From Clostridia bacterium (GTDB lineage: Bacteria > Bacillota > Clostridia > TANB77 > CAG-465), in assembly GCA_030524345.1 (NCBI GenBank), contig JAUNGP010000006.1:15105-79104 (forward strand): a stretch of 64,000 bases of DNA, read 5' to 3'. This document shows positions 12,674 to 63,958 of this stretch, piece after piece. Each line of letters starts with the position of its first letter. Within the stretch, counting starts at the first letter, position 1. The notes under the pieces were generated by a model, which was given only the letters and a program-made list of their open reading frames with translations, made no database searches and was not told the origin of the DNA. The translations under genes and the position numbers were made by a program.

Positions 12674-12888
12674 CATAAAATCACCTCCTATATTTATTAT
12701 ATGCATTAGAGATGAAAAAAGAAACAAACGGGAAATTGCCTCTTTATATGGGTTGTTTTAATTTAGAATAATTTTGTCATCATGAAACAAATTACAAAAA
12801 ATGATACAAAAGACTTGTTTTTTTAAATTTCATATGTTAAAATATACTAGTAACATTAAAGACTTGAAAATAGGAAGGTGTGAAAAAA

Positions 12889-13107
12889 ATGAAAACAGAT
12901 ATACAACCAAAATATGGAAAAGCTGAAATAAGATGTGTTTGCGGTAACGTAATCGAAACTGGCTCTGTAAAAGAAGAAATGAGAACAGATACATGTAGTA
13001 AATGTCATCCATTTTTCACAGGTCAAAAACAAGCTATGTCTAGCCAAGGTAGAGCAGCTAAGTTTATGGAAAAATATGGAAATAAAGTTAAAAAAGCAGA
13101 TAAATAG
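12889..13107 (+). CDS. rpmE: 50S ribosomal protein L31
   Basis: MKTDIQPKY...CxC...CSKCHPFFTG. Terminator hairpin at about 13125-13165. Confidence 0.9.
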   Translation: MKTDIQPKYGKAEIRCVCGNVIETGSVKEEMRTDTCSKCHPFFTGQKQAMSSQGRAAKFMEKYGNKVKKADK

Positions 13108-13194
13108 TCTTATTTAAATATGGAATAAATGTGAAGAGTGTCGAAGTTGATTGAGACACTCTTTCACTTTATATATTTTAGGAGTTTATGGATT

Positions 13195-14943
13195 ATGAAA
13201 ATTAAGAAAAATAAAGGCAAAAAAGAAAAAATTGGTGGGATTGCTCTTAGTAATGGGATCATCCTAAAAAGTGAAAAAAGGGATAGTATTACAAAGAAAA
13301 ATAGTGATGGAAAGATAATAGTAAAGATAGATAAACATTTTATTGGTAAGAGTAAATTTAGTTTATTAGACCTACCCTTTATAAGAGGAATGTATAATAT
13401 AGTATCACAGCTGACGAGTTCCAAAGTAGATTTAAAAGAAAATGTAAAAGCAATTTGTGATGCATTCAATATCAAATATGATGAAGAAGAGTTAAATATA
13501 AAAACTCCTGTTTTAATAGGCATGATTATAATAATAGTTATATTTTTTCTTGTCATAACTCCATGTCTTATATCACTACCTTTTGGCCATTTCAAAGAAA
13601 TGGTACAAGCATTAATTCAATTTTTAATACTTGCTTTATTGCTAGTATCCTTAAGAGTGAGTAAATCATTAGTATCTATTTTAGAATATCATGGGGCAGA
13701 ACATAAAATTGTCAATGCTTATGAGAACTTAAATTTTGATGAACTAACAGTAGAAAATGTCAAAAAAGAATCTAGAATCCATAGAAGATGTGGCTCTAAC
13801 TTTATTGCTTTTTTTATACTCATTACAATACTTGAGACCTTACTGATCACAGTAGATCATATCGCTATTAAAATGTTAATACTTGCACTTCTTATCATCC
13901 CTAATATATCTATTTCTTATGAACTAGTGATGCTTCTTGGAAATCTTCCTAAATGTTTAGCATATTTATTTTATCCAATTATGGCTGTACAGTTTATGAC
14001 TACAAAAAATCCTAGCGATGATAAAATAAAACTTGCTATTTACGGAGTTTATGGGGTGTTAAAGGAGAATCTAAAGATGAGCGTATCAGAGCTTATAAAA
14101 AAATATGAGGAGGAAAATTATGACTTAATTCAAAACAAAGAGTATCAGTTACAAGATATGCTACAGGTCGTATCCTATGTAACAAAAAAGAATACAAATC
14201 ATATATACATTTATATGAATGAATATCTGTTAAGTTATAATGAGCAAATTGAGGTAATAAGACTTCTAGACCAATTATTTAAAGAAGATGTGCCACTTCA
14301 GTATATTACAAATAGAGCCTATTTTTATAACGAGGAATATATTGTGAACCATCATGTATTGATCCCAAGACAAGATACAGAAATATTAGTACAAAAAGCA
14401 ATTGAATATATTTCAAAATATGATTTAAAAAAAATGATAGATCTATGTACTGGTAGTGGATGTATTGGGATATCTATTGCTAACAATTCTGATATAGAAA
14501 AAGTAATCCTTAGTGATATCTCTAAAGAGGCATTAAGTGTAGCAAGACAAAATATTCAATTAAATAATGCAACTAAAGTAGTAGCCTACCTTTCTGATTT
14601 GTTGGAACTATATATTGATAACAAAACAGTAGTAGATATCATTGTATCAAATCCCCCTTATATCAAAACAGATGTTATCCAAACGCTTGATAAAACGGTA
14701 TTAAAAGAACCAAGACTTGCTCTTGATGGTGGCAAATCTGGGCTTGACATCTATATTAAAATATTAGATCAAGCAAAATATGTCTTAAAGGAACATGGAT
14801 ACTTAATGTTTGAAATTGGATATGATGAATTAGAAGAATTAAAACATATCATTTCAACGCATCCAGAATATGAATTGATAGAGTCAATCAAAGACTATGG
14901 AGGAAATGATAGAGTTATTATATGTCGCTTTTGCAATATTTAG
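13195..14943 (+). CDS. prmC: DUF1385 (YqhQ-like membrane) domain fused to peptide-chain-release-factor N5-glutamine methyltransferase PrmC/HemK
   Basis: The N-terminal half has TM helices and a GAEHK..NAYE motif (YqhQ/DUF1385). The C-terminal half has a SAM-MTase fold with NPPY and VLIPRQDTE motifs. Confidence 0.75.
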   Translation: MKIKKNKGKKEKIGGIALSNGIILKSEKRDSITKKNSDGKIIVKIDKHFIGKSKFSLLDLPFIRGMYNIVSQLTSSKVDLKENVKAICDAFNIKYDEEELNIKTPVLIGMIIIIVIFFLVITPCLISLPFGHFKEMVQALIQFLILALLLVSLRVSKSLVSILEYHGAEHKIVNAYENLNFDELTVENVKKESRIHRRCGSNFIAFFILITILETLLITVDHIAIKMLILALLIIPNISISYELVMLLGNLPKCLAYLFYPIMAVQFMTTKNPSDDKIKLAIYGVYGVLKENLKMSVSELIKKYEEENYDLIQNKEYQLQDMLQVVSYVTKKNTNHIYIYMNEYLLSYNEQIEVIRLLDQLFKEDVPLQYITNRAYFYNEEYIVNHHVLIPRQDTEILVQKAIEYISKYDLKKMIDLCTGSGCIGISIANNSDIEKVILSDISKEALSVARQNIQLNNATKVVAYLSDLLELYIDNKTVVDIIVSNPPYIKTDVIQTLDKTVLKEPRLALDGGKSGLDIYIKILDQAKYVLKEHGYLMFEIGYDELEELKHIISTHPEYELIESIKDYGGNDRVIICRFCNI

Positions 14944-14972
14944 AAAGCTACAGGTATTATAATCAAATTAAA

Positions 14973-15138
14973 TTGACATAACATGCAAAAAATGATATAA
15001 TATAGACATGGATAATAAATGAAGTTCTATATGATTATAAAGGACAGGTACCTTATATGAATCATGTGGAACTTTTTTTGTATCACAACAATTAATGAAA
15101 GGATTCCCGTGATAGAAAATAAGGGAAAAGGTGAACTT
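14973..15138 (+). promoter_or_regulatory. promoter plus structured 5' leader, family copy 1 (diverged)
   Basis: TTGACA (14973) and TATAAT (14996). Hairpin ATGATTAT-AAGG-acaggta-CCTT-ATGAATCAT followed by TTTTTTTG. SD hairpin TTCCC...GGGAA. Confidence 0.55.
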
Positions 15139-16291: not shown

Positions 16292-16537
16292 ATGAAAGAA
16301 TTAAAGGGTTTTGAAAGATTACAGGGATTTGACCATATCCTTCCTAGAGGAATTGATATTATTCAGCTGAAGGCTGGACAGGTTCTTTGGATTGATGAAG
16401 ATGGACTGTATATTGCAGAATCAGATGTCATACTTATAGTTGAACATCTAGATATTATCTATGATCCGGCTGACAGCCAACATGGCAGATTATGGTGGAA
16501 TTGTAGTGATGTTATCAAAGAAATTCCGCTGAAATAA
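16292..16537 (+). CDS. small hypothetical protein (81 aa), GC-elevated, leader-controlled
   Basis: Starts at MKELKGF. The 4-codon uORF ATGGTGTTATTATGA overlaps its ATG. Paralogous N-terminus with the 17747 ORF. Confidence 0.5.
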   Translation: MKELKGFERLQGFDHILPRGIDIIQLKAGQVLWIDEDGLYIAESDVILIVEHLDIIYDPADSQHGRLWWNCSDVIKEIPLK

Positions 16538-33036: not shown

Positions 33037-34413
33037 ATGATAAACTATAGTAAAGATGAAATTATAAAGCTTGCTTTTGATGATAAGAAAACAATTTGGG
33101 ATTTATTTGAACTTTTTAAGGTTGCTAATGATAAAGAGTATTATCGTTTTATACATGACATATTTGGTGATGATATGATAGGATATACTACTTTTGCTGA
33201 TCAAGTATCTCTTAATAATAAAAAATATCGTATAAACCATACAATCCCAAAAGGCATATCTCCGGAAGAATTAATAAAAATGGCGGAAAATGGCAAAAAT
33301 AGAATTGACTTTATGAGAATGTTAGGAATAAACGGAACTAGTAAGTTTTATAAAATGGCTAAAGAAGTATTTGGAAGAGATGAATATGAATATGATATTT
33401 TTATAAGCAAGGTAAAAGAAAATACAGCTAAGTTTTTAGGTGACTCTATTGAAAAGGCTAAAGCTACTAAAAAGCAAAATAAATTAAAAGGAAATAATCA
33501 AGTAGCATATTTATATAGCATAGACTATTTATATATGTATAAAGACTGCGAAAACTTTAGTATACCGCTCTCTCAGGAGTCATATATTCTTTCTTTGGCT
33601 ATAAAGTACTTTTCTTCTAACCCATTTTTAAAATCAATTAGTTCTAAAATAGCAGAAGTGATAAATAAAAACTCTAACGTAGAACTTATTACTGAGGAAA
33701 ATACATTTGATTTTGTAGAGAGAATAAATATAAGCGATGACCCCCACTCAGTATCAGGCATGTTCAATATATTACAAAATAATGTATCGGGGGCATGTCA
33801 TACGCCCATATGTGCTGTTGATAATGATTTATTAATCTTAGATGCACTTAAGCTGAAAAGCCAAGGGAAAAAACCTATTGTAGTTACAAGTAATGTTATT
33901 ACTCAAAGAAACTTACAATATTTTGGTATTGCTTCTATGCCTGCCTGTATATATAACCTAGATGATGGCATACTTTCTTTACAAGATAAAATGCTTTTAC
34001 CTAAAGAGGCAACTCCTCTTCTTCCTTGCATTTGTTTTGATGCTTCATATGTGTTAAGTAAAAAAGACGAATTTTTTAGCTACTTATGTAGTATGGATTC
34101 TATTAAAGTCATTTTTTCAACTATATATGATGATATAATAGAATATTTTATGAAGAAATCTGGATTTAATGCATCTGACGAACTTATGCTAAAAAAGATT
34201 CTATATAGTATCTGTTATGCTGTTTCTTTTAATCCTACCGTTAAATTCATCCCTGTTTCAGGAACCTCTACTGGTTTATACAGTTTTAATTCCAGTATTA
34301 TATTAAATAATACTATTAATTTAAGTAGAGTATATAATGATATTACTATTGCAAGCACTAATAGCAATTTGGTAACAACAGCAAATTTAATGGGGATCAA
34401 AGTAATAATGTAA
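33037..34413 (+). CDS. hypothetical protein, paralog B (N-terminal HTH-like region plus PIN-like C-terminal half)
   Basis: The C-terminal ~200 aa are homologous to paralog A (DNDLLILDALKLKSQGKKPIVVTSN...FGI; VKFIPVSGTSTGLYSFNSS). The N-terminal ~200 aa are extra. Confidence 0.4.
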   Translation: MINYSKDEIIKLAFDDKKTIWDLFELFKVANDKEYYRFIHDIFGDDMIGYTTFADQVSLNNKKYRINHTIPKGISPEELIKMAENGKNRIDFMRMLGINGTSKFYKMAKEVFGRDEYEYDIFISKVKENTAKFLGDSIEKAKATKKQNKLKGNNQVAYLYSIDYLYMYKDCENFSIPLSQESYILSLAIKYFSSNPFLKSISSKIAEVINKNSNVELITEENTFDFVERINISDDPHSVSGMFNILQNNVSGACHTPICAVDNDLLILDALKLKSQGKKPIVVTSNVITQRNLQYFGIASMPACIYNLDDGILSLQDKMLLPKEATPLLPCICFDASYVLSKKDEFFSYLCSMDSIKVIFSTIYDDIIEYFMKKSGFNASDELMLKKILYSICYAVSFNPTVKFIPVSGTSTGLYSFNSSIILNNTINLSRVYNDITIASTNSNLVTTANLMGIKVIM

Positions 34414-38461: not shown

Positions 38462-40516
38462 TTACTTACTATCTACCATATAATCTTCAATGACTTTATA
38501 AGTCCAAGCCGACGAACCAGTATACCAAGTCCAACCTCCTCTGCCTACATGATCTGGATTAGAATAAATATCTGCCGCTACAACATAAGGCTCTACCATA
38601 TATTTATCTGCCATATCCTTAGAATCAGAATGATAGATAGGATTAATATATTTTAGGATTTGTATTCCTTCTTCTTTCATTCCAAATTCAAAATATGCCT
38701 TAGCAAGCCATGTTGCAGCATGAGTATATTGGCCTCCATTTTCTCTTGTACCAGGTACATAGGCCTTGATATATCCGGGATTATTCTTTGGCTTATCAAA
38801 AGCCGGATAAAGCAATTTTACAATCATATTTTCTTTATCTACCAAATATTTATCAGCTGTTTTTAAACATTCGACTAGTTCATTTCTTACATCTGGATAA
38901 TCTTTCATTGCAATCACAGCCCAAGCTTGGGAAATCAAGTCTATCTTACATTCCCTATTAGAGTTTGCTCCTAGCACTTCCCCATTTTCAAAAAAGGCTC
39001 TAACAAAATGATCTTCATCCCAAGCATTATCAATAATACTATGTTTAAAAATATGTCTTTGCTTTTCACATAATTTTTCCATTGTATCATCTTTTTTAAT
39101 CTGAGATAACTTAGTAAATCTTTTTAAAATATCCATCATAAAAAATGTAAGCCACACGGATTCTCCTCTTATACTGCTAAATCCATCATTCCAATCGCCA
39201 TCTCCTATTTCAAGTAAACCATTTTTTTCATTAATTCTTGATAGGCTATACTGAATAGCTAGTTTTGCGTGCTCATATACAGTAGCCTCTTTATCTATTT
39301 GATGATATATATCATATACCTCTCTTTTATCTCCCATCGGTTTATCTTCTAAAAAATGTGTTTTAACATCTAATATAGAAATATCTCCTGTTTTTTCTAC
39401 ATATTCAGAAAGTACATATGGAAGCCATAGATAATCATCACTAAAATAGGTTCTAATCCCTGCATTATTATGAACATGCCACCAATGAAGAACATCACCT
39501 TTTTCAAATTGTTTACTAGAATTTAATATGATCTGTTCCCTCGTTTTTTCAGGCCAAGAGCTAATCAATGCTAAAGTATCTTGAAGTTGATCTCTAAATC
39601 CTATGGCTCCACCAGATTGATAAAAAGCAGATCTTGCAAAAAGTCTACACACGATGGTCTGATATAGTAACCAACCATTTGCCATAATTTCTAAATACTG
39701 ATTATCCAGCTTAAAGTTTCTTACTACACGCTCCCTCCAATACGCAATTGTATCTTGATATTCCTTTTCTATTGCCTCCTTGGTATCATATTTTTTTAAT
39801 ACTTCGGCAATATACTCTTTATCATTGCTACAGCCGAATATAATAGAGTATTTTTCTTCTTTTCCCTCTGCAAGTTTTGTTGTAATTCTTACCATGTAAT
39901 CGTCTGGCATATACTCTACAATTGAATTCTCATTTGCTCCTTTTACAGTAACAAAAGATATGCAGTCAGAAAACTCTAAACTATATGGATTTTTAAACTG
40001 CATTACACCATCTTTTTCTCTACACAAAATATATTGTAAATTAGTCTCCTGGGCAACACCAAGAACTGGTTCTAATCGATACTCTATTACACATTCTTGA
40101 GCTTTAGAATATTTATTTTCAAGTGTAATCGTTTGTATTTTTACAGTATCCTCTTTAGGAATAAAGATATCCATTTTTTTAGATATATAATGATCTTCTT
40201 GTAATACTTTAGAATATCCAAATCCATATACTAAATTATAATTATTATCATATATTCCATGAAATATCTCTCCAGGCTTAAAGCTAATCCAATCATTACA
40301 CCAATTCGTAAGTTTAAATCCTTGACTATTTTTATAATAGGTGTATACAGTACCATAGCTTGAAACTACGGTACCGAAATTTTCATTTGCCATGACATTA
40401 CACCAAGGAAGTGGAGTTTTAACATTTAATATATGATATTCATCTCCTTGCTTATTAAATCCACCATATGAATTAAAAGCTATATATTCATTTGAGTTAG
40501 AATTAAACTCCATCAA
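38462..40516 (-). CDS. GH94-family glycoside hydrolase/phosphorylase module (C-terminal module of a split cyclic beta-1,2-glucan synthase)
   Basis: N-terminal beta-sandwich motif (TPLPWCNVMANENFG). GDWNDG catalytic-acid motif. C-terminal GGWTWYTGSSAW, typical of GH94. Overlaps the upstream gene by 14 nt. Confidence 0.75.
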   Translation of the reverse strand: MMEFNSNSNEYIAFNSYGGFNKQGDEYHILNVKTPLPWCNVMANENFGTVVSSYGTVYTYYKNSQGFKLTNWCNDWISFKPGEIFHGIYDNNYNLVYGFGYSKVLQEDHYISKKMDIFIPKEDTVKIQTITLENKYSKAQECVIEYRLEPVLGVAQETNLQYILCREKDGVMQFKNPYSLEFSDCISFVTVKGANENSIVEYMPDDYMVRITTKLAEGKEEKYSIIFGCSNDKEYIAEVLKKYDTKEAIEKEYQDTIAYWRERVVRNFKLDNQYLEIMANGWLLYQTIVCRLFARSAFYQSGGAIGFRDQLQDTLALISSWPEKTREQIILNSSKQFEKGDVLHWWHVHNNAGIRTYFSDDYLWLPYVLSEYVEKTGDISILDVKTHFLEDKPMGDKREVYDIYHQIDKEATVYEHAKLAIQYSLSRINEKNGLLEIGDGDWNDGFSSIRGESVWLTFFMMDILKRFTKLSQIKKDDTMEKLCEKQRHIFKHSIIDNAWDEDHFVRAFFENGEVLGANSNRECKIDLISQAWAVIAMKDYPDVRNELVECLKTADKYLVDKENMIVKLLYPAFDKPKNNPGYIKAYVPGTRENGGQYTHAATWLAKAYFEFGMKEEGIQILKYINPIYHSDSKDMADKYMVEPYVVAADIYSNPDHVGRGGWTWYTGSSAWTYKVIEDYMVDSK

Positions 40517-43500
40517 TCATATCACCCTCCATATTATCTTTTGTATTTTCATTTAAAAGCTCTGTTGCTTTTTCAGTAGCAGATTCTTCGTTTTTCTCAA
40601 AACATAAGAATTCAGATATGTTTTGTATATATCTTCTAGAAAGATATGTAAGTAATGTTATTTCTTGTTTTGTCAAATTACTGATATTTAAGATATATAT
40701 ATCACCCTTACTTTGTTCCATATATACCGCTCTATCAATTCTTGTCTTAATATACCTATATATTGGACCATCTTGCTTTTGTGGTTCATCTATTAATACT
40801 ATGATATCTAAGTCAATTTTCCTATTTTTTACATAGTCCATAAAGTTAATCACTTCATTGATGATTCCTGCATCTTCTATTTTATTAATATGTACAAGAA
40901 TAATCGGTAAATCTCCAGATATTGAATATTTCCAAAGTGCTGATTGATTTAAATTTTCATCCCAGAATTTTTCATCCTCTGTAATACTCTTTTTAATCAA
41001 AACATCTTTTAAAATGTTATTATATACCTCTGCTCTAGTTGGCTCTAATTTTAAATATCTTGCTACAACACTATTTAATTCATTTGTAAGTTTACATTGA
41101 TCTTCTATTCCATCCTTATCTAGGTTTAATATTGCATTTGATATTTTATATCTACTATCTGCAACACCTAAAACATAATAAAATTCTTGTCTTTCATAAG
41201 GCTCTAAGATAATTCTTGCCCTATAGGATAAAACTGGCCATAATGGATACCTTACAATATTTTCATCATATGAAGTCTCATCGTTATTAAATAACTTTTG
41301 CTTTTCTGTTTCCACTTCTTTTTCAAGATCGATTCCAACAAGTTTTGCAAACACATATAATTCTTTATCATCGTCTGATTTCTTTCTTTTGCTTGCAACC
41401 AATACATCTAAATCTTCGTCATAGTAAGTTTCGATCTGTAAATTACTAAATGAAGGATGAACAATTCCTGTCATATAATCAGTCATTGCGGGTTCAACAT
41501 AGGTATTAATGATAATTTCCTTTTTAGTATTTCCATTATTATATACACTAATTTTTTTCATTTCTGCATTAAATTCTGGTGATATAGATATTGTTGTAGC
41601 GGTCTCTAAATCTCCTGCTACAAGTGTACATTCAACATTGTTTAATGAACTCACCCATTTACATTTGTCCGTATTTTTATTAAATTTACTATGTATATTG
41701 CAATCTGTAACAGAAATAGTATTTCCAGTAGTCTTATCAGTAAGATATACAAAATTTCCACTTGTTTCAAGTTCAGTATATCTTTGTCTATTTACAATTT
41801 TATCTTTATACCTTAAAAAGCTTGCTCCATTATTGCTAATCATACTTGATAGATGAGAGCCCTTTAAAAATGCAATATTTAATTTATTACTTGCATCATT
41901 TGGTGTAATATATTTTCTATCTGCATAAGTATAACTAACATATGTAGTATATTTTTGTGTATTTTTCTGTTTAAATTTATTTTCTTTGTCCTTTGCACCC
42001 TTTTTAATATTGGCTTTTATTCTCTCACGCTCTTTTAATAATATTTCACATGCTTTTATATTTGGATTGGAATGAAATCTTGACTTGATAACTCCATGAT
42101 TTATATAATTATTAATTGCAGTCAGTATCATACCCTGATGGTGCGCCATATATGTTTTGGCTATCTCACACTCAGCACCTGCATGTAAGTTTTCCTTTGT
42201 GTAGTCAATAGACTCATAAAATCCATAAGAAGAATATAATCCCAGTTCTTTTAACCTATTCATATTTTTATATACTCTGACTGGATCTATTTCTATCATA
42301 AGGATTGAAGAATATGGAGATATTACAAGTGAGTCATTAAGCCCTCTTTTTAATCCAAGCCAAGGTATTCCAAATGCTTTATACTGATAATTTAATTCAT
42401 CATCTTTTACAGCATATGCAGATTCAGATATTCCCCAAGCAACATTATTTGCTTTTGCATATTTTAATTGACTATATTTTGTAAAGAAGAGTGACTGATC
42501 AATTAAAGTATGCTCATAGGATTTATTAAATAGAAATGGCATAAAATACTCAAATGCTGTACCAGTCCAAGATATTAGTCCTTTATATCCATCCAAGCTC
42601 ACTAGGTTTCTTGCTAAAGCAAACCAGTGCTTTGAAGTCACTTGCTTTGATGCAATTGCAATCAAACTTGTTGTTCTACTCTCTGACATTAACATATCAT
42701 AATAGCTATCTACTAGCGTTCCATTTTCCACTGCATATCCAATCGAAAATAAATTTCTAGAAGTATCATATAATTTGGAAAAGTCCGCTTCCTCTATAAT
42801 ACTTTCAGTAATGTCAAGCATCCCATCAATTCTTTCTTGATACTCGGCAATAAAATCTTTGATACTATACGATTTATCTTTCTTTAAATCATATAAAAAT
42901 TCTCTTGCTACATAAAGACAAGATATAAAATTTCCACTGTCAACCGTAGAAACAAATCTAGGTCGTAATGGTTCTAATGTTTTAATATTATACCAATTAT
43001 ATAAGTGACCATTCCAGGTTTCTAACTTTTCAATAGTGTTATATATATTTTCTAACCTTTTAATCATATCCGCTTTATTAATAAAGCCTAAATCATAAGC
43101 ATCAATAATTGCAAGTATCCCAAATCCAATATTAGTAGAAGATGTTCTATTTGCTATTTTGTGCCTTCTATTTTCTTGAAAATTATCTGTAGGTAAATAA
43201 TTATTCGTTGGACTCATCATCGTATCAAAGAAAGTCCAAGTTCTTTTAGCTACTTCTAATACCTCTTCCTTTTCTTTTTCCTCCAATGGTTTTATTCTAC
43301 CTACTAAATGATCCTTTCCAAGTAAATAACAAAGCATTGGTCCAAGTAAAAATGAAATTGCTACAAATATTTTAAAGTCTATTAATACAACTGCCTCAGT
43401 ATCTAATGCAAATGGAACAAACAAAATGAAAAGTCCTACAATTACATTAATAAACATATTAGAATAATAATATGATAAACTATCTTTTGCTGATTTTTCT

Positions 43501-46133
43501 AGCATTTCTCCTGTTGTCCATTGTAGTAAATTCTTTTTAGAAATCAACATTCTATAAAGTGACATCGTAAATGCACTAATACAATTATATGCCCTATATG
43601 GCATTGTAACAAAATGAAAGCACATTGTAAGAAAATCAGCACTAGCTCCATGAATAATAGGAATATATTGCACATCTTTTGTGTGTCTTACTTTACCATA
43701 TAATATAATATCAATAATTGAGAGTACATATCCAAAATTTAAAGCTACAAAACTTAATAAAGTGGTCACTATGAAAGTCTCTTTTGATACAAATATCGAT
43801 ACAATAATAGCAATTAGGGCAAATACATCTAAAAGGGGTCTTCTTAAATTATCAAATATTTTCCATTTAGATAATATGTTAAGTTTTGATTTTGGACTGA
43901 TCAGCCATCTAATGATTTGCATGTCTCCCCTATACCATCTATGATTTCTTTTCATATATGCTATATAATTATTTGGAAAACCATCTTGAAGTTCAACATC
44001 TGATGCAAGTCCTGCCCTTATAAACGATCCTTCTAGTAAATCATGACTTAATACCAAATTTTCTGGTATTTCTTTTCCAAGTAACTTTTCAAAAAGTTCT
44101 ATATTATAGATTCCTTTTCCACAAAATATAGCTTCTCCAAAAACATCTTGATAAACATTTGCTATCGCATTTGTGTAAATGTCAAGGCCACCTACACCCC
44201 CAAATATTTTGGAAAATATACTTTTATTTGCAGCTTCTATGTCAAGACCTACAGAAGGTGTGATAAGGCCATATCCCTTTTCTACAATTTTTCCATTTTG
44301 AGATAATACTGGCTGGTTTAATGGATGAGCGATAATCGATACTAAATCCTTTGCAGTATTAAGTGATAATTGGCTATCTTCATCCATTGTGATTGCATAT
44401 TTTGCAGGCATAATATCATCATAGATAAGATACATTGCTCTACTTATTTCCTCTTGGCTTAAATTTCCAAGAATCAATTTATTAAACTGTGAAAGAGCCC
44501 CTCTTTTTCTCTCCCATCCCATATAGCAGCCTTCACCTTTAGAATATACACGTTTTCTATATATAAAATTAAATATTTTATGTTCAGATTCATACTTTTC
44601 ATTTAATTCATCTAATCTTTTCTTTGCATATTCAACTATTTTTTTGTCAATACTAATCGTTTCCCTATCACTAGAAATACAATCTCCAAGGAGCATATAA
44701 TACATATTCTCGCTTCTATTAGAAAGATATGTAACTTCCATTTTTTTAATCATGTCATCTAATTTTTCTACAGAAGAGATCACTGTTGGCATAACAACAT
44801 AGGTTGGATATTTCTTATCAACCGTTTTGGCAAAATCAAATCTAGGTAATACTTTAGGATGTATCATTTTTCTAAGTAGATAACTTAGTATTTTATCAGA
44901 AGCCTCCAAAGAAAATACAAAGGCGATGATATAAAAGAATATATTGATCCCTAAATATTCAAAATGAATTAACTCTCTGCCAACAAAATAAGTTATTAAC
45001 GCAGCAATCAATAATAAAAAAGAAATGTAAATATGTGCTTTGATTGGTTGTATACACTTATAATAAAGTCTATCAGTAAAATAAGATTTATTAAGCTCCT
45101 TTTTTAAAAGATATTTTTCTTCACCAATTAGGAAAAAACCAACATGTTTTTTATACTTATGTGAACATTCTACTGCTTTTTTAGCTACATATGCTTCCGA
45201 CAAATTATACTTTTTAGCAAGCCTTATAATATAGCTTCTATATCTTCCTTTTGTTTTATAATCACATTTTTTAAATTCATTTGTATAATCTTTTCTTAAG
45301 GTTTCATCAATTTTATTTACTTTTTCAAATATTTCCCTAAAATTAAGTCCCTGTAATTGCTTATATGCAAGTATTGCTCTTCCTATATAATCTGTCGTTT
45401 TAGCAATTTCCATATGCTCTTTTACAATTGCCTCTTCTACTGTAAATCCAATCTTATCTGCTTCTTCTGTTAATATATTAAAAAAGCTCTCTCCTTTTGG
45501 GCCAAGTTCTTTTAATCTATATGCCATATATTCTACTAATGCTGTATTTGTATGTTTTATTTTAGAATAATCTGTTAATGCTGTTTTATTAAAGCCTTTA
45601 AAAAAATTAAAATCATGATATAATTCTTTTACCAATTTATCAGTAGAAAGATTTTCATTGGAAAGGATTTTTTCAACTTCCATTTTTCTCATCTGAGAAT
45701 TTGATATATTAACACAAATTCTTGCTATAAACTTTAATAATGCCATTTTTAACATTAGAACAAATAAATCTAGCTCTTCCGAAGTAAGGTATGATAACTT
45801 CTGATGTTCCTTTAAACAATTTAATATAATATTTTTATCAATATATCCCGTATTTTTTTCCACTAGCTCATAAGCTAAGAAAAAAATGCTAATGCACTTA
45901 TCACCATTATTTGTTTTTATCACCGGCAATTTTTTGTTTTTTAGTATTCTTCTAGATTCTTTTATTTCATCGTATTCTTGTTCTATGATATACATATTGT
46001 CTAGTATCCATTGCCCAGCAGAATGTATCTGTATTTTCATATCATAAGTTTTCTCTAAAATCTTATGCGTTTTTGCTATTATTTTATAATTTTTTTCTGC
46101 TTCATTAAATGTGGCTTTTAGCGAATTTTTCAT
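40503..46133 (-). CDS. cyclic beta-1,2-glucan synthase-like protein (N-terminal domain plus GT84 glycosyltransferase plus TM region plus central glucan-processing domain)
   Basis: 1876 aa. The GT84-type motif GWERKRGAL and DxD-containing region (ITMDEDSQL). Multiple TM helices after the GT domain. Large alpha-helical central domain. Confidence 0.7.
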   Translation of the reverse strand: MKNSLKATFNEAEKNYKIIAKTHKILEKTYDMKIQIHSAGQWILDNMYIIEQEYDEIKESRRILKNKKLPVIKTNNGDKCISIFFLAYELVEKNTGYIDKNIILNCLKEHQKLSYLTSEELDLFVLMLKMALLKFIARICVNISNSQMRKMEVEKILSNENLSTDKLVKELYHDFNFFKGFNKTALTDYSKIKHTNTALVEYMAYRLKELGPKGESFFNILTEEADKIGFTVEEAIVKEHMEIAKTTDYIGRAILAYKQLQGLNFREIFEKVNKIDETLRKDYTNEFKKCDYKTKGRYRSYIIRLAKKYNLSEAYVAKKAVECSHKYKKHVGFFLIGEEKYLLKKELNKSYFTDRLYYKCIQPIKAHIYISFLLLIAALITYFVGRELIHFEYLGINIFFYIIAFVFSLEASDKILSYLLRKMIHPKVLPRFDFAKTVDKKYPTYVVMPTVISSVEKLDDMIKKMEVTYLSNRSENMYYMLLGDCISSDRETISIDKKIVEYAKKRLDELNEKYESEHKIFNFIYRKRVYSKGEGCYMGWERKRGALSQFNKLILGNLSQEEISRAMYLIYDDIMPAKYAITMDEDSQLSLNTAKDLVSIIAHPLNQPVLSQNGKIVEKGYGLITPSVGLDIEAANKSIFSKIFGGVGGLDIYTNAIANVYQDVFGEAIFCGKGIYNIELFEKLLGKEIPENLVLSHDLLEGSFIRAGLASDVELQDGFPNNYIAYMKRNHRWYRGDMQIIRWLISPKSKLNILSKWKIFDNLRRPLLDVFALIAIIVSIFVSKETFIVTTLLSFVALNFGYVLSIIDIILYGKVRHTKDVQYIPIIHGASADFLTMCFHFVTMPYRAYNCISAFTMSLYRMLISKKNLLQWTTGEMLEKSAKDSLSYYYSNMFINVIVGLFILFVPFALDTEAVVLIDFKIFVAISFLLGPMLCYLLGKDHLVGRIKPLEEKEKEEVLEVAKRTWTFFDTMMSPTNNYLPTDNFQENRRHKIANRTSSTNIGFGILAIIDAYDLGFINKADMIKRLENIYNTIEKLETWNGHLYNWYNIKTLEPLRPRFVSTVDSGNFISCLYVAREFLYDLKKDKSYSIKDFIAEYQERIDGMLDITESIIEEADFSKLYDTSRNLFSIGYAVENGTLVDSYYDMLMSESRTTSLIAIASKQVTSKHWFALARNLVSLDGYKGLISWTGTAFEYFMPFLFNKSYEHTLIDQSLFFTKYSQLKYAKANNVAWGISESAYAVKDDELNYQYKAFGIPWLGLKRGLNDSLVISPYSSILMIEIDPVRVYKNMNRLKELGLYSSYGFYESIDYTKENLHAGAECEIAKTYMAHHQGMILTAINNYINHGVIKSRFHSNPNIKACEILLKERERIKANIKKGAKDKENKFKQKNTQKYTTYVSYTYADRKYITPNDASNKLNIAFLKGSHLSSMISNNGASFLRYKDKIVNRQRYTELETSGNFVYLTDKTTGNTISVTDCNIHSKFNKNTDKCKWVSSLNNVECTLVAGDLETATTISISPEFNAEMKKISVYNNGNTKKEIIINTYVEPAMTDYMTGIVHPSFSNLQIETYYDEDLDVLVASKRKKSDDDKELYVFAKLVGIDLEKEVETEKQKLFNNDETSYDENIVRYPLWPVLSYRARIILEPYERQEFYYVLGVADSRYKISNAILNLDKDGIEDQCKLTNELNSVVARYLKLEPTRAEVYNNILKDVLIKKSITEDEKFWDENLNQSALWKYSISGDLPIILVHINKIEDAGIINEVINFMDYVKNRKIDLDIIVLIDEPQKQDGPIYRYIKTRIDRAVYMEQSKGDIYILNISNLTKQEITLLTYLSRRYIQNISEFLCFEKNEESATEKATELLNENTKDNMEGDMIDGV

Positions 46134-59641: not shown

Positions 59642-59798
59642 AAGACTCACTCCTTTAGTGTCAAATTGATACTTTAGTATATCATAAACCTTGTCTATTG
59701 TAAATTCATTTTTACGATAAATAATGAAAAAACTATCCTTGTACCAATATATGTTAATATTATAGTACAAAAATACAATTTAATTTTACAATAGTACA

Positions 59799-59827
59799 TT
59801 GATTATCACAAAAAACTTATATATAAT
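59799..59827 (+). promoter_or_regulatory. consensus-like sigma-A promoter driving a noncoding transcript convergent with cas9
   Basis: TTGATT, 17 nt, TATAAT. Confidence 0.6.
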
Positions 59828-59833
59828 AAAGAT

Positions 59834-59937
59834 AATACACACCTAACACACACACTCGTTATACTTTCCTATTGTTTTATAATAAATTTGTCACTATCAA
59901 GAAGGATTACTTCCTTCTTGTTTTTATTTTTTTAAAT
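59834..59937 (+). ncRNA. candidate ~100-nt small RNA abutting the cas9 3' end (possible tracrRNA / fixed guide RNA)
   Basis: Defined by the promoter at 59799-59827 and the terminator caagaaggattacttccttcttg plus TTTTTATTTTTTT at 59898-59937. Contains no ATG. The U-tract overlaps the last cas9 codons on the opposite strand. Confidence 0.5.
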
Positions 59938-62900
59938 GAAAATTCATGCGTATCTCGGGTAATTTTACCTCAGTGTAATTGCCTAAAATATCTACCTGAT
60001 ACTTTTTTATAACAGCTAAATTTCGAACTCCAAGACTTGGTTGCCAATATCTTCTATCATGAGTAGACAAAGCAATGGATGAGGAATTAATCCCACATTT
60101 TATATAGTATCCATATATTTCATTAACAAATATTTTTTCTTTTGTATTTCCTTTCTTCATTGAAGTTAAATAAAAGCCTTTTTTGCTTTGAATATAAACT
60201 AAATCTCCCGGATATAATGAAAAAATAAAATGATCATTTTTCATTTCTTTCCACTTAGATTGTGGCTTAGCGGAAACACAAGCCTTACTTGGCAATGCTT
60301 CTCTAATAGTATCTGATACATATATTGGTACAAAATAATATCCTTCATTAGGAATATGGAAAACATCAATTCTTACTGTATCTCCATTTCCTGCAACTCC
60401 CCCTATTTTATCTATTTTAACATTGCTAGAACTTTTTAACTCTAGTTTTACTTTATTTACAATAGGACCCTTTTCTCCATTTGATTTTGGTTTAAAGAAA
60501 GGTTTACTAAAAGCTACTTTGGCATTTCCATTCGCTTCTATTAATTTTTTTCTTAGCGCTTCATATAATAGCCTATCATCTTTTTTATTATAATAATTTT
60601 CTATCTCATTTTCTTTATTTAACTTAAGCTCAGTAAGTTTTTTTCTAACAATGATGTTTCCATTTTTACATAATCCATTAATTGTTTCCTTATGTGCCAT
60701 TCCTCTCACTTTCCTATTTGGCATTTTAGATACAAAAATTGCTTTTGGATTATCATAGACATTGATCATTTCCAGTTCTTTTTTTACTTCACTATCAGTA
60801 TCTTTCATTCTTGCTTTAAGTTCCAAAATAATTTTTTGATACGCCTCACTTAAATCCATTCTTTTATTACATGTGATACTTTGGATCATCTTTTCACTTA
60901 CTATGGCAATAATAACAGCATCAAGAGCATGATGTTTATCATCTTCTCTAGACTTATTTAAATGAAACATTTTCCTAACAGTATAGGTAATTCCCCCTCT
61001 TAAAGCCATAATTCTTTTACTTTCAGAAATATTTTCATTTGGCTCAATATACAAATAATTTCTGATTAGAGAAAGTACAATTCTTGTTATATATTGAGTA
61101 TCTTTTAAGTTTCTTTCTTTCCATAACATTTCCTCCTCCAAAGAAATCGTCTCTTTCAAAAGATTGCTTACCTTTTTGTGCGTTTTAAGACAGGAAAGTA
61201 CTCTTTCTTTGTATTCATCTATGTTTTTACCAGATTTTAAAATATATTCATTTGGCAACATATCTCCCTTACTTCTAATTTCACATACTTTTGCAAGTAC
61301 TTTATTGTGATAACTATTATCAAAAGTTCTATGATAGGGAATCATATAATCAATATCTACTTTTTTGGAAAATAATTCGCTCAAAGGAATCGTATCCCCA
61401 GAATAGATACATGTTCCATTTTGTTCTTTCCAAAGTCTATACTTTAATATTTCTTCATCTGTAACATTTTCCTTACAAAATTTTTCTTTTATTTCCGTGA
61501 CAATACTTTGTTCCCTAAGCGCATTTGCTGCATTTTCTCTACCAATTCTGGTAATGAATTCTCGAGCAAGTTCTATGTTTACAATTTCAGGACTGCCATA
61601 TTTATCAATGATAGCATTAATTACTTTAATAGACTGTGATATTCCTCGCCTTACTACTGGATTTGTGATCTCTGTTAAATCATTTAATGACAACTTCCTC
61701 TTCTTTTCAAAGTTCATATTTCCTCTAAAATCATGATATACCATATTCGTTGCTTTATCATATGTAAGTCCCTCTTTCAAATAAGGGATTATCTTTTTCA
61801 TTGCCTTGATGGAAAGATGACTAAAATTGGAAAATGTTATATTTAATAGCAATGAAACTATCTGATCATTTAATCCAATTTTAGACAAATATTCTATTCT
61901 TTTCTCATCACTTTTATACAAAGTCAGTATGGTTGCTATATAATCTAATGTATTCTCGTCAAAATGATATATATAGTCTTTTTCATAACCATCTAAAACT
62001 TTTCTTAATTTATGAAAAGACTCTAATTCTCTTAACTTGATATCTGTATTTTTTTCATTTTGTTCTATAACATTTTTGGTATCTTCACTTTTTGATAAAG
62101 AAAAAAAGTTATAATGGATCATATTAAATATCTCATCATCCGGAAGATGAATTATTTCCCTGATACGAAAATAGGAAAGCTCTGATGTATGTCTAAATTC
62201 TTCAATAATTTTTACTTTCTCATCTTCACTAAGTTCTCTTGTATCTGACTTTTTATGATTCATGATTCCATTTTTTCCTACATCCAAATTTAATTTTTCA
62301 ATCTTAATTTTATTTAAGTCTTGTAACAATTTAAATATTTCAAATGTATATGTACTTTTAGCAGCCCTTAGCTCATTTTTTTCAAAAGTACAAGTTCCTA
62401 TCATCTTCTCTATGACATTTCCTGTATAATGGCTTGTAAAAGCAGGTCCTTCATCAAAATTTCGCTGTGACAAGAATATATTTATATATTCATTAATGAA
62501 TTCCTCATCTATATTCTCATAATAATTCCTTTGGCTATCTAAAATAAGTTTTATCTCATGCAATATATGTTCTCTTTTAACTACAGAGCCATAATCCCCT
62601 ATTTTATTTCTCACCTTCAGTATTTTATCACCATTTGAATCGAGGACAAATTCATTTTCTACACGATATTTAAATTTATCATCTTTTAAATACATTTCAC
62701 CAACAGTTCTATATCCCTTCTCTATAAGGATTTTATCATTTTCAGCAATTGCCTTTAAAACTTTACCGTTTTTATCATCTAATGTATTATATTTTGCATT
62801 GGATTGATAACCACGCTTTTTAACAAAATGAATCAGTAGTGAAGCAAGTTCTAACTTAGATATTTTATGATCCAATGCTTTTACTCGAATTTCATAAATA

Positions 62901-63187
62901 TTATGACAATGTATTTGATATAATTCGCTCTCACTTACAATATTGCTTCGAATTAAGAGTTGTTTTACTCTTAAAATTCTATGAGTTCTTCTTCTCAATC
63001 TTCTTCTATTACTTCGCTTTTTACTTCTTTCTTCTGCAAGAGAAGCCCCACTTTTAGGAACTTCTGCAGCTTCAAATATTCTCACACCAAGATCTAAAAT
63101 TTTGACTGGCTCTCCCATATCATCATCTTTTACTACTGCCCAGCCAACTGATGTAATTCCTATGTCTAGCCCTATTCTATATCCCAT
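59924..63187 (-). CDS. cas9: type II CRISPR-associated endonuclease Cas9-like protein with degenerate HNH active site (orphan; no cas1/cas2/array)
   Basis: RuvC-I IGLDIGITSVGWAV. Arg-rich bridge helix RRRLRRRTHRILR. RuvC-II EIVNIELARE. HNH block DIDYMIPYHRTFDNSYHNKVL...EIRSKG has Tyr at the catalytic His position and Ile at the metal-binding Asn position. RuvC-III KHHALDAVIIA. Start at MGYRIG with GGAGGG SD. Confidence 0.85.
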   Translation of the reverse strand: MGYRIGLDIGITSVGWAVVKDDDMGEPVKILDLGVRIFEAAEVPKSGASLAEERSKKRSNRRRLRRRTHRILRVKQLLIRSNIVSESELYQIHCHNIYEIRVKALDHKISKLELASLLIHFVKKRGYQSNAKYNTLDDKNGKVLKAIAENDKILIEKGYRTVGEMYLKDDKFKYRVENEFVLDSNGDKILKVRNKIGDYGSVVKREHILHEIKLILDSQRNYYENIDEEFINEYINIFLSQRNFDEGPAFTSHYTGNVIEKMIGTCTFEKNELRAAKSTYTFEIFKLLQDLNKIKIEKLNLDVGKNGIMNHKKSDTRELSEDEKVKIIEEFRHTSELSYFRIREIIHLPDDEIFNMIHYNFFSLSKSEDTKNVIEQNEKNTDIKLRELESFHKLRKVLDGYEKDYIYHFDENTLDYIATILTLYKSDEKRIEYLSKIGLNDQIVSLLLNITFSNFSHLSIKAMKKIIPYLKEGLTYDKATNMVYHDFRGNMNFEKKRKLSLNDLTEITNPVVRRGISQSIKVINAIIDKYGSPEIVNIELAREFITRIGRENAANALREQSIVTEIKEKFCKENVTDEEILKYRLWKEQNGTCIYSGDTIPLSELFSKKVDIDYMIPYHRTFDNSYHNKVLAKVCEIRSKGDMLPNEYILKSGKNIDEYKERVLSCLKTHKKVSNLLKETISLEEEMLWKERNLKDTQYITRIVLSLIRNYLYIEPNENISESKRIMALRGGITYTVRKMFHLNKSREDDKHHALDAVIIAIVSEKMIQSITCNKRMDLSEAYQKIILELKARMKDTDSEVKKELEMINVYDNPKAIFVSKMPNRKVRGMAHKETINGLCKNGNIIVRKKLTELKLNKENEIENYYNKKDDRLLYEALRKKLIEANGNAKVAFSKPFFKPKSNGEKGPIVNKVKLELKSSSNVKIDKIGGVAGNGDTVRIDVFHIPNEGYYFVPIYVSDTIREALPSKACVSAKPQSKWKEMKNDHFIFSLYPGDLVYIQSKKGFYLTSMKKGNTKEKIFVNEIYGYYIKCGINSSSIALSTHDRRYWQPSLGVRNLAVIKKYQVDILGNYTEVKLPEIRMNFHLKK

Positions 63188-63238
63188 ATATCCCTCCAAG
63201 AGCAAAAGTGTATCTGAAAAAAGATACACTTATGTCAA

Positions 63239-63958
63239 TTATTTTTCATAAATTAATATTGTATAAGAACTATTACCACGATACTTTTTTGTCATAGGAG
63301 TAAAATCATCTTCTCCATCAAAAGTAAATACAGTAAGTTCTATAGGAGATACTATATTTCTAGTATTTTTATCTCCAACTAATTTAATTGAACTACAAAT
63401 TCTCTCATCATTCATGATATCTTGTGTTATATGATAATATGATCTTCCAGGTATTAAATGAATATCATCATATAAATAGCATTGTACTTTAGGAAACAAT
63501 AAATATGCATCATCAGGATTTAAGACTATTTGATTGATTGTTTCTCCGCTATCTAAAGTAAACTTTATGTTATACCCTATTTTATAATTGTTATAATTTA
63601 CATACTCATGATAATACTGATCAAAAATTGTTTTAAAATCATCTCTAACAATTTCTTCCTCTAGTGTAGGTATTGCATAAAAAATCCCCATAATATTTTC
63701 TGCAGAAAAGTCACAATAGTATTCTTTTACTAGCCTTTTTCTATTTCCTTCGTCAATATATAATCCTATTTTCATTTCATTCTCATCTACATATTCTTCA
63801 GTTTTTTGAGATTTTACTTCATTTTCAAGCGTTTTCGATGCTTCACTAACATGAGAAGATATGTTTGTTACAACTTTAGTATTTGATAGTACTATTTTTG
63901 CAACGACTACACAGAGTAGTATCATACAAATTAGAATAACGAATATTTTCTTTTTCAA
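63239..63958 (-). CDS. hypothetical membrane-anchored/secreted protein
   Basis: N-terminal signal/TM segment (KIFVILICMILLCVVVA). A weak terminator hairpin (gtgtatc/gatacac) lies between it and cas9. Confidence 0.5.
   Translation of the reverse strand: MKKKIFVILICMILLCVVVAKIVLSNTKVVTNISSHVSEASKTLENEVKSQKTEEYVDENEMKIGLYIDEGNRKRLVKEYYCDFSAENIMGIFYAIPTLEEEIVRDDFKTIFDQYYHEYVNYNNYKIGYNIKFTLDSGETINQIVLNPDDAYLLFPKVQCYLYDDIHLIPGRSYYHITQDIMNDERICSSIKLVGDKNTRNIVSPIELTVFTFDGEDDFTPMTKKYRGNSSYTILIYEK

Follow-up and report, generated by a model that had tools for sequence, protein, structure and literature searches.

A type II-C Cas9 with an inactivated HNH site and a solo CRISPR RNA-like unit in a Clostridia genome: a candidate domesticated, single-guide remnant

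We analyzed a 64,000-nucleotide (nt) stretch of a Clostridia bacterium genome (contig JAUNGP010000006.1 of assembly GCA_030524345.1), called the window here, whose positions serve as coordinates with the strand given in parentheses. It encodes a type II-C Cas9 that has lost catalytic residues of its HNH site and kept those of RuvC, in a locus with no cas1, cas2, or CRISPR array and with a single CRISPR RNA (crRNA)-like unit just past the cas9 stop codon. We put the probability at about 0.55 that this locus is a domesticated type II-C remnant, fixed in the chromosome of an uncultured gut Clostridia lineage, in which Cas9 would serve as a single-guide DNA binder or as a nickase of the non-target strand.

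RESULTS

The window Cas9 has substitutions in its HNH site and intact RuvC residues

The open reading frame (ORF) at 59924..63187 (-) encodes 1087 amino acids (aa) starting MGYRIGLDIG, with a GGAGGG ribosome-binding site upstream and an alternative, longer start at a GTG at 63229. The protein matches the Cas9 equivalog model TIGR01865 end to end (690.8 bits against a cut-off of 100, model positions 1-1070), contains the Pfam domains HNH_4 (47.8 bits), Cas9_RuvC, and RuvC_III, and has type II-C Cas9s as its closest solved relatives (21dz, E = 4e-197; 9ar4, E = 4e-174). Its nearest active relatives sit in cas9-cas1-cas2-array loci, in keeping with the II-C placement. A protein that is 100% identical (P0001) carries the NCBI name "MAG Clostridia bacterium Cas9." The gene has the following features.

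59924..63187 (-): cas9 coding sequence, HNH-inactivated, type II-C lineage (TIGR01865, Pfam, and PDB Cas9 matches)
63164..63166 (-): D8, RuvC-I catalytic Asp (GLDIG), codon GAC, intact; invariant in the clade members that cover the N-terminus
61571..61573 (-): E539, RuvC-II catalytic Glu (IELARE), codon GAA read on the DNA, intact
61148..61465 (-): HNH domain, approximately residues 575-680, fold kept and catalytic site lost; Pfam HNH_4 covers residues 593-645
61346..61348 (-): Y614 at the position of the HNH general-base His, motif DIDY, codon TAT (read on the DNA; alignment)
61304-61306 (-): N628, motif NKVL, kept, codon AAT read on the DNA
61277..61279 (-): I637 at the position of the metal-coordinating Asn, ENxxKG changed to EIRSKG (CEIRSKG), codon ATT (read on the DNA; alignment)
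60920..60931 (-): H753 and D756, RuvC-III HHALD, intact (CAT at 60929-60931, GAT at 60920-60922)

An initial annotation of this DNA had described a Cas9 with intact RuvC motifs in which Tyr replaces the catalytic His of the HNH site and Ile replaces the downstream metal-binding Asn, the first Asn (NKVL) being kept. The profile matches and the presence of D8, E539, H753, and D756 bear out its view of the protein and of RuvC. For the HNH site, we aligned the protein to the solved chains with HMMER and found Y614 opposite the His of the VDH motif in 9ar4 and I637 opposite the Asn of its ENrxKG motif; both residues also align to the two positions that read Ala in 21dz. The annotation was also right that TAT lies one base from CAT, and ATT is likewise one base from AAT. 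His and Asn occupy these two positions in 161 of the 166 Cas9 sequences that we scored, so the window substitutions are real departures at near-invariant positions. A nearby substitute His/Asn pair, the possibility that the annotation had held against itself, was not found: no alternative conserved His or Asn lies near the HNH site, and the orthologue P0002 has no His at all in the stretch GIDYIIPYSKSFDNTYSNKVLVKSSEIKVKG. Among the hallmarks of Cas9, the split RuvC D/E/H/D set is present, the Arg-rich bridge helix (KKRSNRRRLRRRTHRILRVK) is as conserved as in the active clade, and the HNH domain is present without its D-H...N catalytic set. Judged by these residues, the alignments show an HNH site that is inactivated and should be unable to do its chemistry in a protein that retains its RuvC residues.

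The same losses are found in a clade of orthologues

The nearest homologues (P0002, P0003, P0004, P0006, and P0015) are 55-66% identical to the window Cas9 and were sequenced in different runs. Each has Tyr in place of the His (xIDY or VVEY), lacks the second Asn (EI, EA, DA, or EY in its place), and has also lost the first Asp of DxDH (to G, V, or S), and each keeps every RuvC residue that its sequence covers (P0015 lacks the N-terminus). This recurrence in relatives, which the initial annotation had proposed to look for, extends the His-to-Tyr change to P0046, P0145, P0178, and P0202. In a neighbor-joining (NJ) tree, the HNH-dead clade has 100% bootstrap support, and its sister is an active clade (P0005-P0017) with the normal DxDH...EN residues. 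P0202, in which the His-to-Tyr change is accompanied by an intact RuvC, joins the main clade at 87%. A profile search with the dead HNH region against a word-indexed database returned short fragments only, all with normal HNH sites, and an exhaustive representative search supplied the HNH comparison instead.

The fact that each codon lies one base from the canonical one (TAT from CAT, ATT from AAT) raises the question of sequencing or assembly errors in a normal Cas9. We give this explanation next to no weight, as seven other samples yielded orthologues with substitutions at both positions, most orthologues have lost the first Asp of DxDH as well, and cas1, cas2, and the array are absent from all these loci. 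Losses shared across independent samples do not come from a sequencing error, and because they are common to a vertically inherited clade under purifying selection (see below), neither an error nor a fresh pseudogene explains them.

The HNH-dead cas9 genes are under purifying selection

We compared six cas9 genes of the clade, from at least four distinct lineages, by the Nei-Gojobori method. All are full-length ORFs of 1086-1093 codons at a synonymous divergence (dS) of 0.4 to >1.2. The ratio of nonsynonymous to synonymous divergence (dN/dS) over the whole gene is 0.15-0.19 for pairs with a dS of 0.4-0.6 and 0.20-0.37 for more diverged, near-saturated pairs, with values of 0.2-0.6 in the HNH region. 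These data show that the clade has remained under purifying selection after HNH inactivation.

We also compared regional conservation between four dead-clade sequences and six active-sister sequences, whose mean identities are 63% and 64%, respectively. Conservation of the HNH region is 0.55 in the dead clade and 0.71 in the active sister clade, a ratio of 0.77. The corresponding ratio of dead to active identity is 0.86 for RuvC-III/L2, 0.88 for the REC/RuvC-II linker, and 0.95-1.02 for RuvC-I, RuvC-II, the bridge helix, and REC (0.97-1.02 for REC and the bridge helix), while the WED/PI region is more conserved in the dead clade, at 1.11-1.17. Only the HNH and RuvC-III/L2 regions are clearly relaxed. 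A relaxed HNH domain together with a tightly held WED/PI region is what would be expected of a protein that reads a guide and a protospacer-adjacent motif (PAM), has a fixed target, and performs no HNH chemistry.

The cas9 locus is inherited vertically and lacks the adaptation module

In the window and eight further loci (listed as L001-L005 and L012-L015), we found the same gene order: a 240-aa gene, cas9, a gap of approximately 275-320 nt, and ackA, with a tRNA gene upstream of the 240-aa gene. Where the contig reaches beyond ackA, it continues with a DUF447-like gene, VTT, engB, serS, cmk, and plsC. Between clade loci, AckA, the DUF447-like protein, and VTT are 78-88% identical, compared with 56-62% for Cas9. 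L003 and L014 are the closest pair for every gene compared, which indicates vertical co-divergence of the locus to roughly genus-to-family depth.

The active sister clade (L007-L011) has canonical cas9-cas1-cas2-array loci with a 36-nt repeat and a trans-activating crRNA (tracrRNA). In the HNH-dead loci, the gene after cas9 is ackA, not cas1 or cas2; tblastn with the Cas1 and Cas2 of sister loci found neither gene in the window or in any clade locus, and a repeat scan found no direct-repeat array either in the window or in contig L001 (23 kb), which extends 10 kb past the window's end. The description of this cas9 as an orphan in the initial annotation holds in that cas1, cas2, and an array are missing; it fails in that a solo spacer-repeat unit abuts the cas9 stop codon.

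The constant upstream neighbor of the HNH-dead cas9, at 63239-63958 (-) in the window, encodes a 239-aa protein with an N-terminal hydrophobic segment and a secreted appearance, 59-84% identical between loci and with no precomputed Pfam hit on record. Upstream of it, past the right end of the window, L001 1-9000 holds a defense-type island beside a partial tRNA copy, with CTD10/MC6/DUF2326 genes, an integrase fragment, an EcoRI-type methylase, and a GmrSD/HNH protein; elsewhere in the clade, the 240-aa gene has a whole tRNA gene as its direct neighbor instead of such an island. Among the sister loci, the L008 array seems to be split in three (12780-13952, 14891-15042, and 16345-16497) with phage-like genes (DUF4355, ART-PolyVal) between the parts, and L010 is interrupted by an IS110 element.

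A conserved solo repeat-spacer unit lies convergent to cas9

Directly 3' of the cas9 stop codon, every clade locus contains a 36-nt block that reads TATAAAACAATAGGAAAGTATAAC followed by GAGTGTGTGTGT on the cas9 strand. In the window, it is part of the following predicted unit, which runs on the other strand.

59799-59804 (+): -35 element, TTGATT, a consensus match
59822-59827 (+): -10 element, TATAAT, 17 nt after the -35 element; the promoter-like site 59799..59827 has 10 of 12 consensus matches
59834..59857 (+): spacer-like segment (psiS), AATACACACCTAACACACACACTC, with an invariant 3' end across the clade
59858..59883 (+): solo CRISPR repeat (psiR), GTTATACTTTCCTATTGTTTTATAAT, like the array repeat of the sister clade
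59898..59933 (+): intrinsic terminator, hairpin CAAGAAGGATTACTTCCTTCTTG and a T run that overlaps the cas9 stop codon on the other strand

The first 22 nt of psiR are identical at 21 positions to the repeat of the active sister clade (L007-L011), and read on the cas9 strand, the repeat half has one mismatch to the last 21 nt of that repeat. Going by this identity, the solo repeat is a descendant of an array repeat and not of a tracrRNA anti-repeat. Only one repeat copy is present, and psiS occurs once in the window at up to 1 mismatch. The 3' 12 nt of the spacer-like segment, ACACACACACTC, are invariant across the clade, and its 5' part varies between lineages; in type II crRNAs, the 3' end of the guide is the seed end. 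The 36-nt core formed by psiR and psiS has a mean pairwise identity of 88%, compared with 30-47% for flanking intergenic DNA, and the synonymous sites of adjacent genes are saturated (dS > 1 for L001). A DNA pattern scan for the conserved core added one genome (L012) from the GTDB set and gave no match in JGI metagenomes; the GTDB representative MGBC120553 comes from a mouse gut catalogue.

The signals around the core are also shared. In 9 of 9 loci of the two HNH-dead lineages (the second is described below), the spacer-like segment is preceded at a distance of 7 nt by a perfect TATAAT, and the predicted guides are 17-24 nt long, with approximately 17 nt in the L003 group. The terminator at 59898..59933 is the only terminator-like site in the region, where 0.1 would be expected. 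Hairpins with T runs are found on this strand in L002, L005, L006, and L016 as well, with a hairpin sequence that differs in every locus. When we folded the predicted 99-nt RNA, the terminator formed one stable hairpin and the guide and repeat were unpaired. By its conservation and its predicted promoter and terminator, the solo unit looks like a conserved small gene with the anatomy of a crRNA-like regulatory RNA. A stem enclosing the spacer and repeat can be drawn in L002 and the L003 group and not in L001 or L005, so we did not take it as a feature.

The repeats of active relatives (L007-L011 and L017), read on the crRNA strand, end in TGATATAAT or TGGTATAAT, which is an extended -10 box. 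Type II-C arrays of Neisseria have repeat-internal promoters, and the repeat ends suggest by analogy that the sister repeats also contain promoters from which crRNAs would be transcribed towards cas2. The solo units keep the promoter logic of these repeats.

A second conserved intergenic block, ATGTAYTATTGTAAAATT, lies at approximately 59785-59810 (-), between the solo unit and the ackA promoter (TTTACA at 59704 ... TATACT at 59676), and has equivalents in L002-L015; its candidate roles are those of an ackA operator or a second promoter.

We searched for targets of the guides. Apart from the solo unit itself, no match to the 14-nt seed end with up to 3 mismatches was found near any locus, and exact 20-mers of the CA-rich guides had no match in viral contigs. 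With a 16-mer, there were 5 viral matches, in unrelated contigs of which three are of high G+C; the matches do not extend, and we rejected them. An 18-mer of near-microsatellite sequence gave 54 viral matches, which are uninformative.

A second HNH-dead lineage has the same layout

P0046, encoded at locus L006, reads IIDY at the HNH site and has lost the Asn; its identity is 61-62% to the active P0021 group and only 50% to P0001. The L006 order of GIY-YIG, cas9, and a CsoR-type repressor is syntenic with that of the active locus L017, in which GIY-YIG and cas9 are followed by cas1, cas2, a 36-repeat array, CsoR, and copA; this synteny indicates that cas1, cas2, and the array were deleted in place (the L006 regions that we compared with L017 are 2366-2483 and 5800-5900). 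What is left in L006 is a mini-unit in which a degenerate second repeat supplies the TGATATAAT promoter ahead of a 23-24-nt guide (GGAACACACACTCACACACACCAC), after which come one repeat and a terminator. The main-clade and P0046 guides share an 11-nt CA-rich run, AACACACACTC, for which we offer no explanation. L006 has also kept its tracrRNA (66.6 bits) by a covariance model that we built from six related tracrRNAs and that recovers L006, L008, L016, and L017, all of them training sequences.

In the NJ tree, P0046 is joined by P0145 (locus L016) and P0178 with 98.5% bootstrap support, and the three fall within the P0021 clade (99.5%); a single origin of all dead forms receives 0%. In addition to the His-to-Tyr change, P0145 and P0178 have lost RuvC-II and RuvC-III residues. 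P0145 has the HNH motifs TINY and SEAEQKG, ILKFSN in place of IELARE in RuvC-II, and KYSINA in place of HHAxDA in RuvC-III. By their residues, P0145 and P0178 are natural, fully dead Cas9s. The P0145 contig is laid out as follows.

L016, 325-435: tracrRNA
L016, 513-3671: cas9
L016, approximately 3700-3760: solo unit

The L016 tracrRNA is intact (114.5 bits), and the solo unit again consists of promoter, guide, repeat, and terminator. Its 20-nt guide, CTAACTATTTTTAATTGTGT, matches three IMG/VR contigs (L075, L076, and L077) at 20 of 20 positions, for which the chance expectation is, by a rough estimate, <1. L075 and L077 represent one phage type, in which the match lies inside a 107-aa ORF beside an SSB gene; L076 is the third contig. 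The tree points to at least two independent origins of HNH inactivation, always by a His-to-Tyr change, with the NJ method and the long branches as caveats.

The main HNH-dead clade has lost the tracrRNA from its ancestral site

In the active sisters, the tracrRNA lies just upstream of cas9 on the same strand (L007 7806-7915, L008 7827-7936, and L010 7110-7219). The equivalent site in the window is as follows.

63188..63238 (-): 51-nt gap between the 240-aa gene and cas9, the ancestral place of the tracrRNA, with only a TTGACA (63233-63238) and a hairpin (approximately 63207-63230)

This gap contains neither the anti-repeat nor any other part of the tracrRNA body. In L002, the terminator hairpin of the tracrRNA is present nearly verbatim and nothing else is, with the stop codon of the 240-aa gene abutting it; in our reading, the L003 group keeps the promoter and terminator and has had the anti-repeat and next stem deleted. 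The predicted pairing energy of the repeat with the gap is -9 to -14 kcal/mol, compared with -36 to -38 kcal/mol for the active sisters. Three candidates elsewhere were rejected: 33751-33833 (19.8 bits, E of approximately 0.09) falls within an ORF and lacks complementarity to the repeat, a site at approximately 45270 (-19.5 kcal/mol) lies inside a 1876-aa ORF and has no tracrRNA tail, and the anti-repeat candidate AATAGGAATATAAT just upstream of the 240-aa gene is the -10 region of that gene and is not conserved.

The loss of the local tracrRNA would fit a structural or regulatory job of Cas9 that needs no guide, the adjoining conserved DNA being a terminator, a 3' untranslated region (3' UTR) element, or a cis-antisense control of cas9 or ackA. 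Also in favor, the unit overlaps the 3' end of cas9 and lies in the ackA upstream region with other conserved blocks, and one report describes a Cas9 role independent of RNA partners (PMC12477760). However, conservation coincides exactly with the 5' 22 nt of the repeat and the seed end of the spacer, not with the hairpin; the bridge helix, REC, and PI regions, which read RNA and PAM, are as constrained as in active Cas9s; and the second lineage, with the same layout, keeps its tracrRNA. We therefore consider a guide-independent job distinctly unlikely.

Large-scale features of the window

Over window positions 1-64000, the cumulative GC skew has its maximum near 26-28 kb, and the large ORFs turn from mostly + to mostly - at approximately 34 kb, as at a replication terminus. 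Large ORFs lie at 40503-46133 (1876 aa) and at 38462-40516.

DISCUSSION

Under the reading that we favor, the window lineage is left without adaptation genes, an array, or an HNH catalytic center and has kept a full-length Cas9 with its RuvC domain, bridge helix, REC lobe, and PAM-interacting domain, together with a guide gene convergent to cas9 in which a promoter would drive a 17-24-nt CA-rich guide joined to one repeat and ending at a terminator. We infer that Cas9 is loaded with a transcript of the solo unit and with this single guide would recognize one fixed DNA sequence, in a mobile element or a host promoter. Since the HNH domain should be unable to cut the target strand, the complex would stay bound to the DNA as an obstacle to transcription or replication, with a RuvC nick in the displaced strand as the most that it could cut. 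From the residues and guides, repression of a fixed target seems the most likely activity. The guide of the P0145 locus suggests, by analogy, that this target is a mobile element, and because that guide matches a phage, defense by binding is a live option; a repurposed role rather than defense, as in the initial annotation, is plausible. Taking the lineages together, type II-C Cas9 may have been domesticated repeatedly into a hard-wired, single-guide nickase or dead Cas9 (nCas9/dCas9), in at least two gut Clostridia lineages with the same His-to-Tyr change and one kept unit, one branch being RuvC-dead with a phage-matching guide and the window lineage being without a local tracrRNA. We hold this joint reading tentatively, at a little under even odds.

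Several observations weigh against these readings. The main weakness of the functional model is the missing tracrRNA: the covariance model, nhmmer, and a duplex scan found none in the window, L001-L005, or L012-L015, and to our knowledge no characterized Cas9 loads a crRNA without one. The deletion of the canonical tracrRNA complicates a simple model of an RNA-guided nickase. Canonical loading would need a tracrRNA with an anti-repeat complementary to GTTATACTTTCCTATTGTTTTA. Either such a tracrRNA is encoded elsewhere in the genome, or the guide is loaded differently, or guidance has been lost; as a speculation, the convergent cas9 mRNA, whose 3' UTR is complementary, could serve in loading by pairing with the guide RNA. 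In addition, no CA-rich target was found in the 64-kb window, the fetched flanks, or the viral contigs, and the promoter and terminator of the solo unit are consensus matches only. Expression of cas9 may be low, since no clear promoter belongs to the gene itself and a terminator-like hairpin precedes it. Finally, the L005 cas9 has one in-frame stop, at approximately 1627-1629 (KFKYKL*NGEF), in a gene that is otherwise collinear with and 66% identical to that of the window; this stop is either a recent loss or an assembly error.

The stop in L005 and the lack of an evident cas9-specific promoter, along with the losses of cas1, cas2, the array, and the tracrRNA and the relaxed HNH region, would also be expected if the locus were a slowly decaying, functionless type II-C leftover in which the solo repeat and spacer would simply be what deletion has so far spared of the array. 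We give such decay long odds. It does not account for full-length ORFs that persist in six cas9 genes over a dS of 0.4 to >1.2 at a dN/dS of 0.15-0.37, for four RuvC residues, a bridge helix, and a PI domain conserved as well as or better than in active relatives, or for a 36-nt core that is 88% identical amid intergenic DNA at 30-47%; moreover, the same layout arose again in a second lineage.

Whether a domesticated Cas9 of this kind would bind or nick is a separate question. One alternative is a programmable nickase, in which RuvC would nick the displaced strand at CA-rich sites and so either stimulate recombination or changes in repeat length in the host or cripple a replicating mobile element. 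The RuvC residues are all conserved in the RuvC-intact dead Cas9s that we examined (main clade, P0046, and P0202), and their strict conservation in the main clade means that nicking stays possible. The HNH domain persists as a folded module, which would be expected if it had gone on gating RuvC; the main-clade guide is near-microsatellite sequence (ACACACACACTC), with its 11-nt CA-rich run shared by the P0046 guide; and there are parallels in IsrB and in the engineered SpCas9 H840A, which nicks the non-target strand. We nevertheless consider this alternative unlikely. P0145 and P0178 lack RuvC residues, and the P0145 locus still has a tracrRNA and a guide, which means that binding alone evidently can suffice. 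No CA-rich target was found in the 64 kb of the window genome. With SpCas9, guides of approximately 17 nt usually allow binding and not cutting, and the guide of the L003 group is only about that long; the short guides and the RuvC-dead relatives both favor binding.

Comparison with known systems places the locus next to several of them. It shares its protein family and domain order with canonical type II-C systems (9ar4 and NmeCas9) and with the sisters L007-L011, which also have the same 36-nt repeat family. Unlike these, it has no cas1, cas2, array, or local tracrRNA, its HNH site is dead, and it has one repeat unit. In Francisella novicida, with the small CRISPR-Cas-associated RNA (scaRNA) and tracrRNA, and in Streptococcus pyogenes, with a long-form tracrRNA, Cas9 acts as a transcriptional repressor (PMC8730458). 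What is shared is a diverged repeat that stands alone with a short spacer-like segment and belongs to no array, a fixed site, and no cleavage. Those systems differ in having an active defense Cas9 with a full array, cas1/cas2, and a tracrRNA, in which partial complementarity alone avoids cleavage, whereas the window locus encodes a nuclease disabled by mutation and has lost the immune parts. CreR/CreA of types I and V-A have the same anatomy of one repeat-like element, one spacer-like element, and a terminator (bioRxiv 10.1101/2024.10.29.618823), but they accompany complete, active CRISPR-Cas loci and target nearby cas or toxin promoters, and we found no matching site near the window locus.

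Other Cas9s that lack an array or a nuclease activity are also comparable in part. Variant II-C2 is a phage Cas9 with a dead RuvC, a live HNH, no array, and a linked SNF2 helicase, proposed to act as an anti-CRISPR (PMC12669027; PMC10910872). Both are array-less type II-C Cas9s with one nuclease site inactivated, and the window Cas9 is the mirror image, HNH dead and RuvC intact, in a chromosomal, vertically inherited locus. CampyICE1 of Campylobacter likewise has a type II-C cas9 without cas1/cas2 and very short arrays with little-varying spacers (PMC8743540), but its Cas9 keeps the HNH and RuvC motifs, and it has a tracrRNA, plasmid-targeting spacers, and a place on a mobile element. IsrB is a natural RuvC-only nickase with no HNH domain and a long omega RNA (PMC10734277); the window protein has an HNH domain and the size of a Cas9, and a possible likeness is limited to RuvC-only nicking. 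The binding-only Cas12 subtypes V-C, V-M, and V-K (PMC12669027) belong to a different protein family and may be alike in binding without cutting. In the 2025 classification and a 2023 survey of rare systems, the only inactivated Cas9 variant is II-C2 (PMC12669027; PMC10910872). In the open-access literature, we found no account of a chromosomal HNH-dead Cas9 accompanied by a solo guide.

Natural nuclease-impaired Cas12 and Cascade systems are known that serve transposons, silence plasmids, or regulate genes. If our reading is correct, a chromosomal, vertically inherited, HNH-dead Cas9 with a single guide would be their Cas9 counterpart and nature's version of the laboratory nickase or dCas9, and Cas9 would have been exapted for a fixed cellular or anti-phage task more than once. 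Because the local tracrRNA has been lost in the window lineage, its guide loading may be of a kind not known for any Cas9, and Cas9 guide loading without a conventional tracrRNA would become a testable possibility. The clade would also provide a test case for the biological use of a RuvC-only Cas9 activity.

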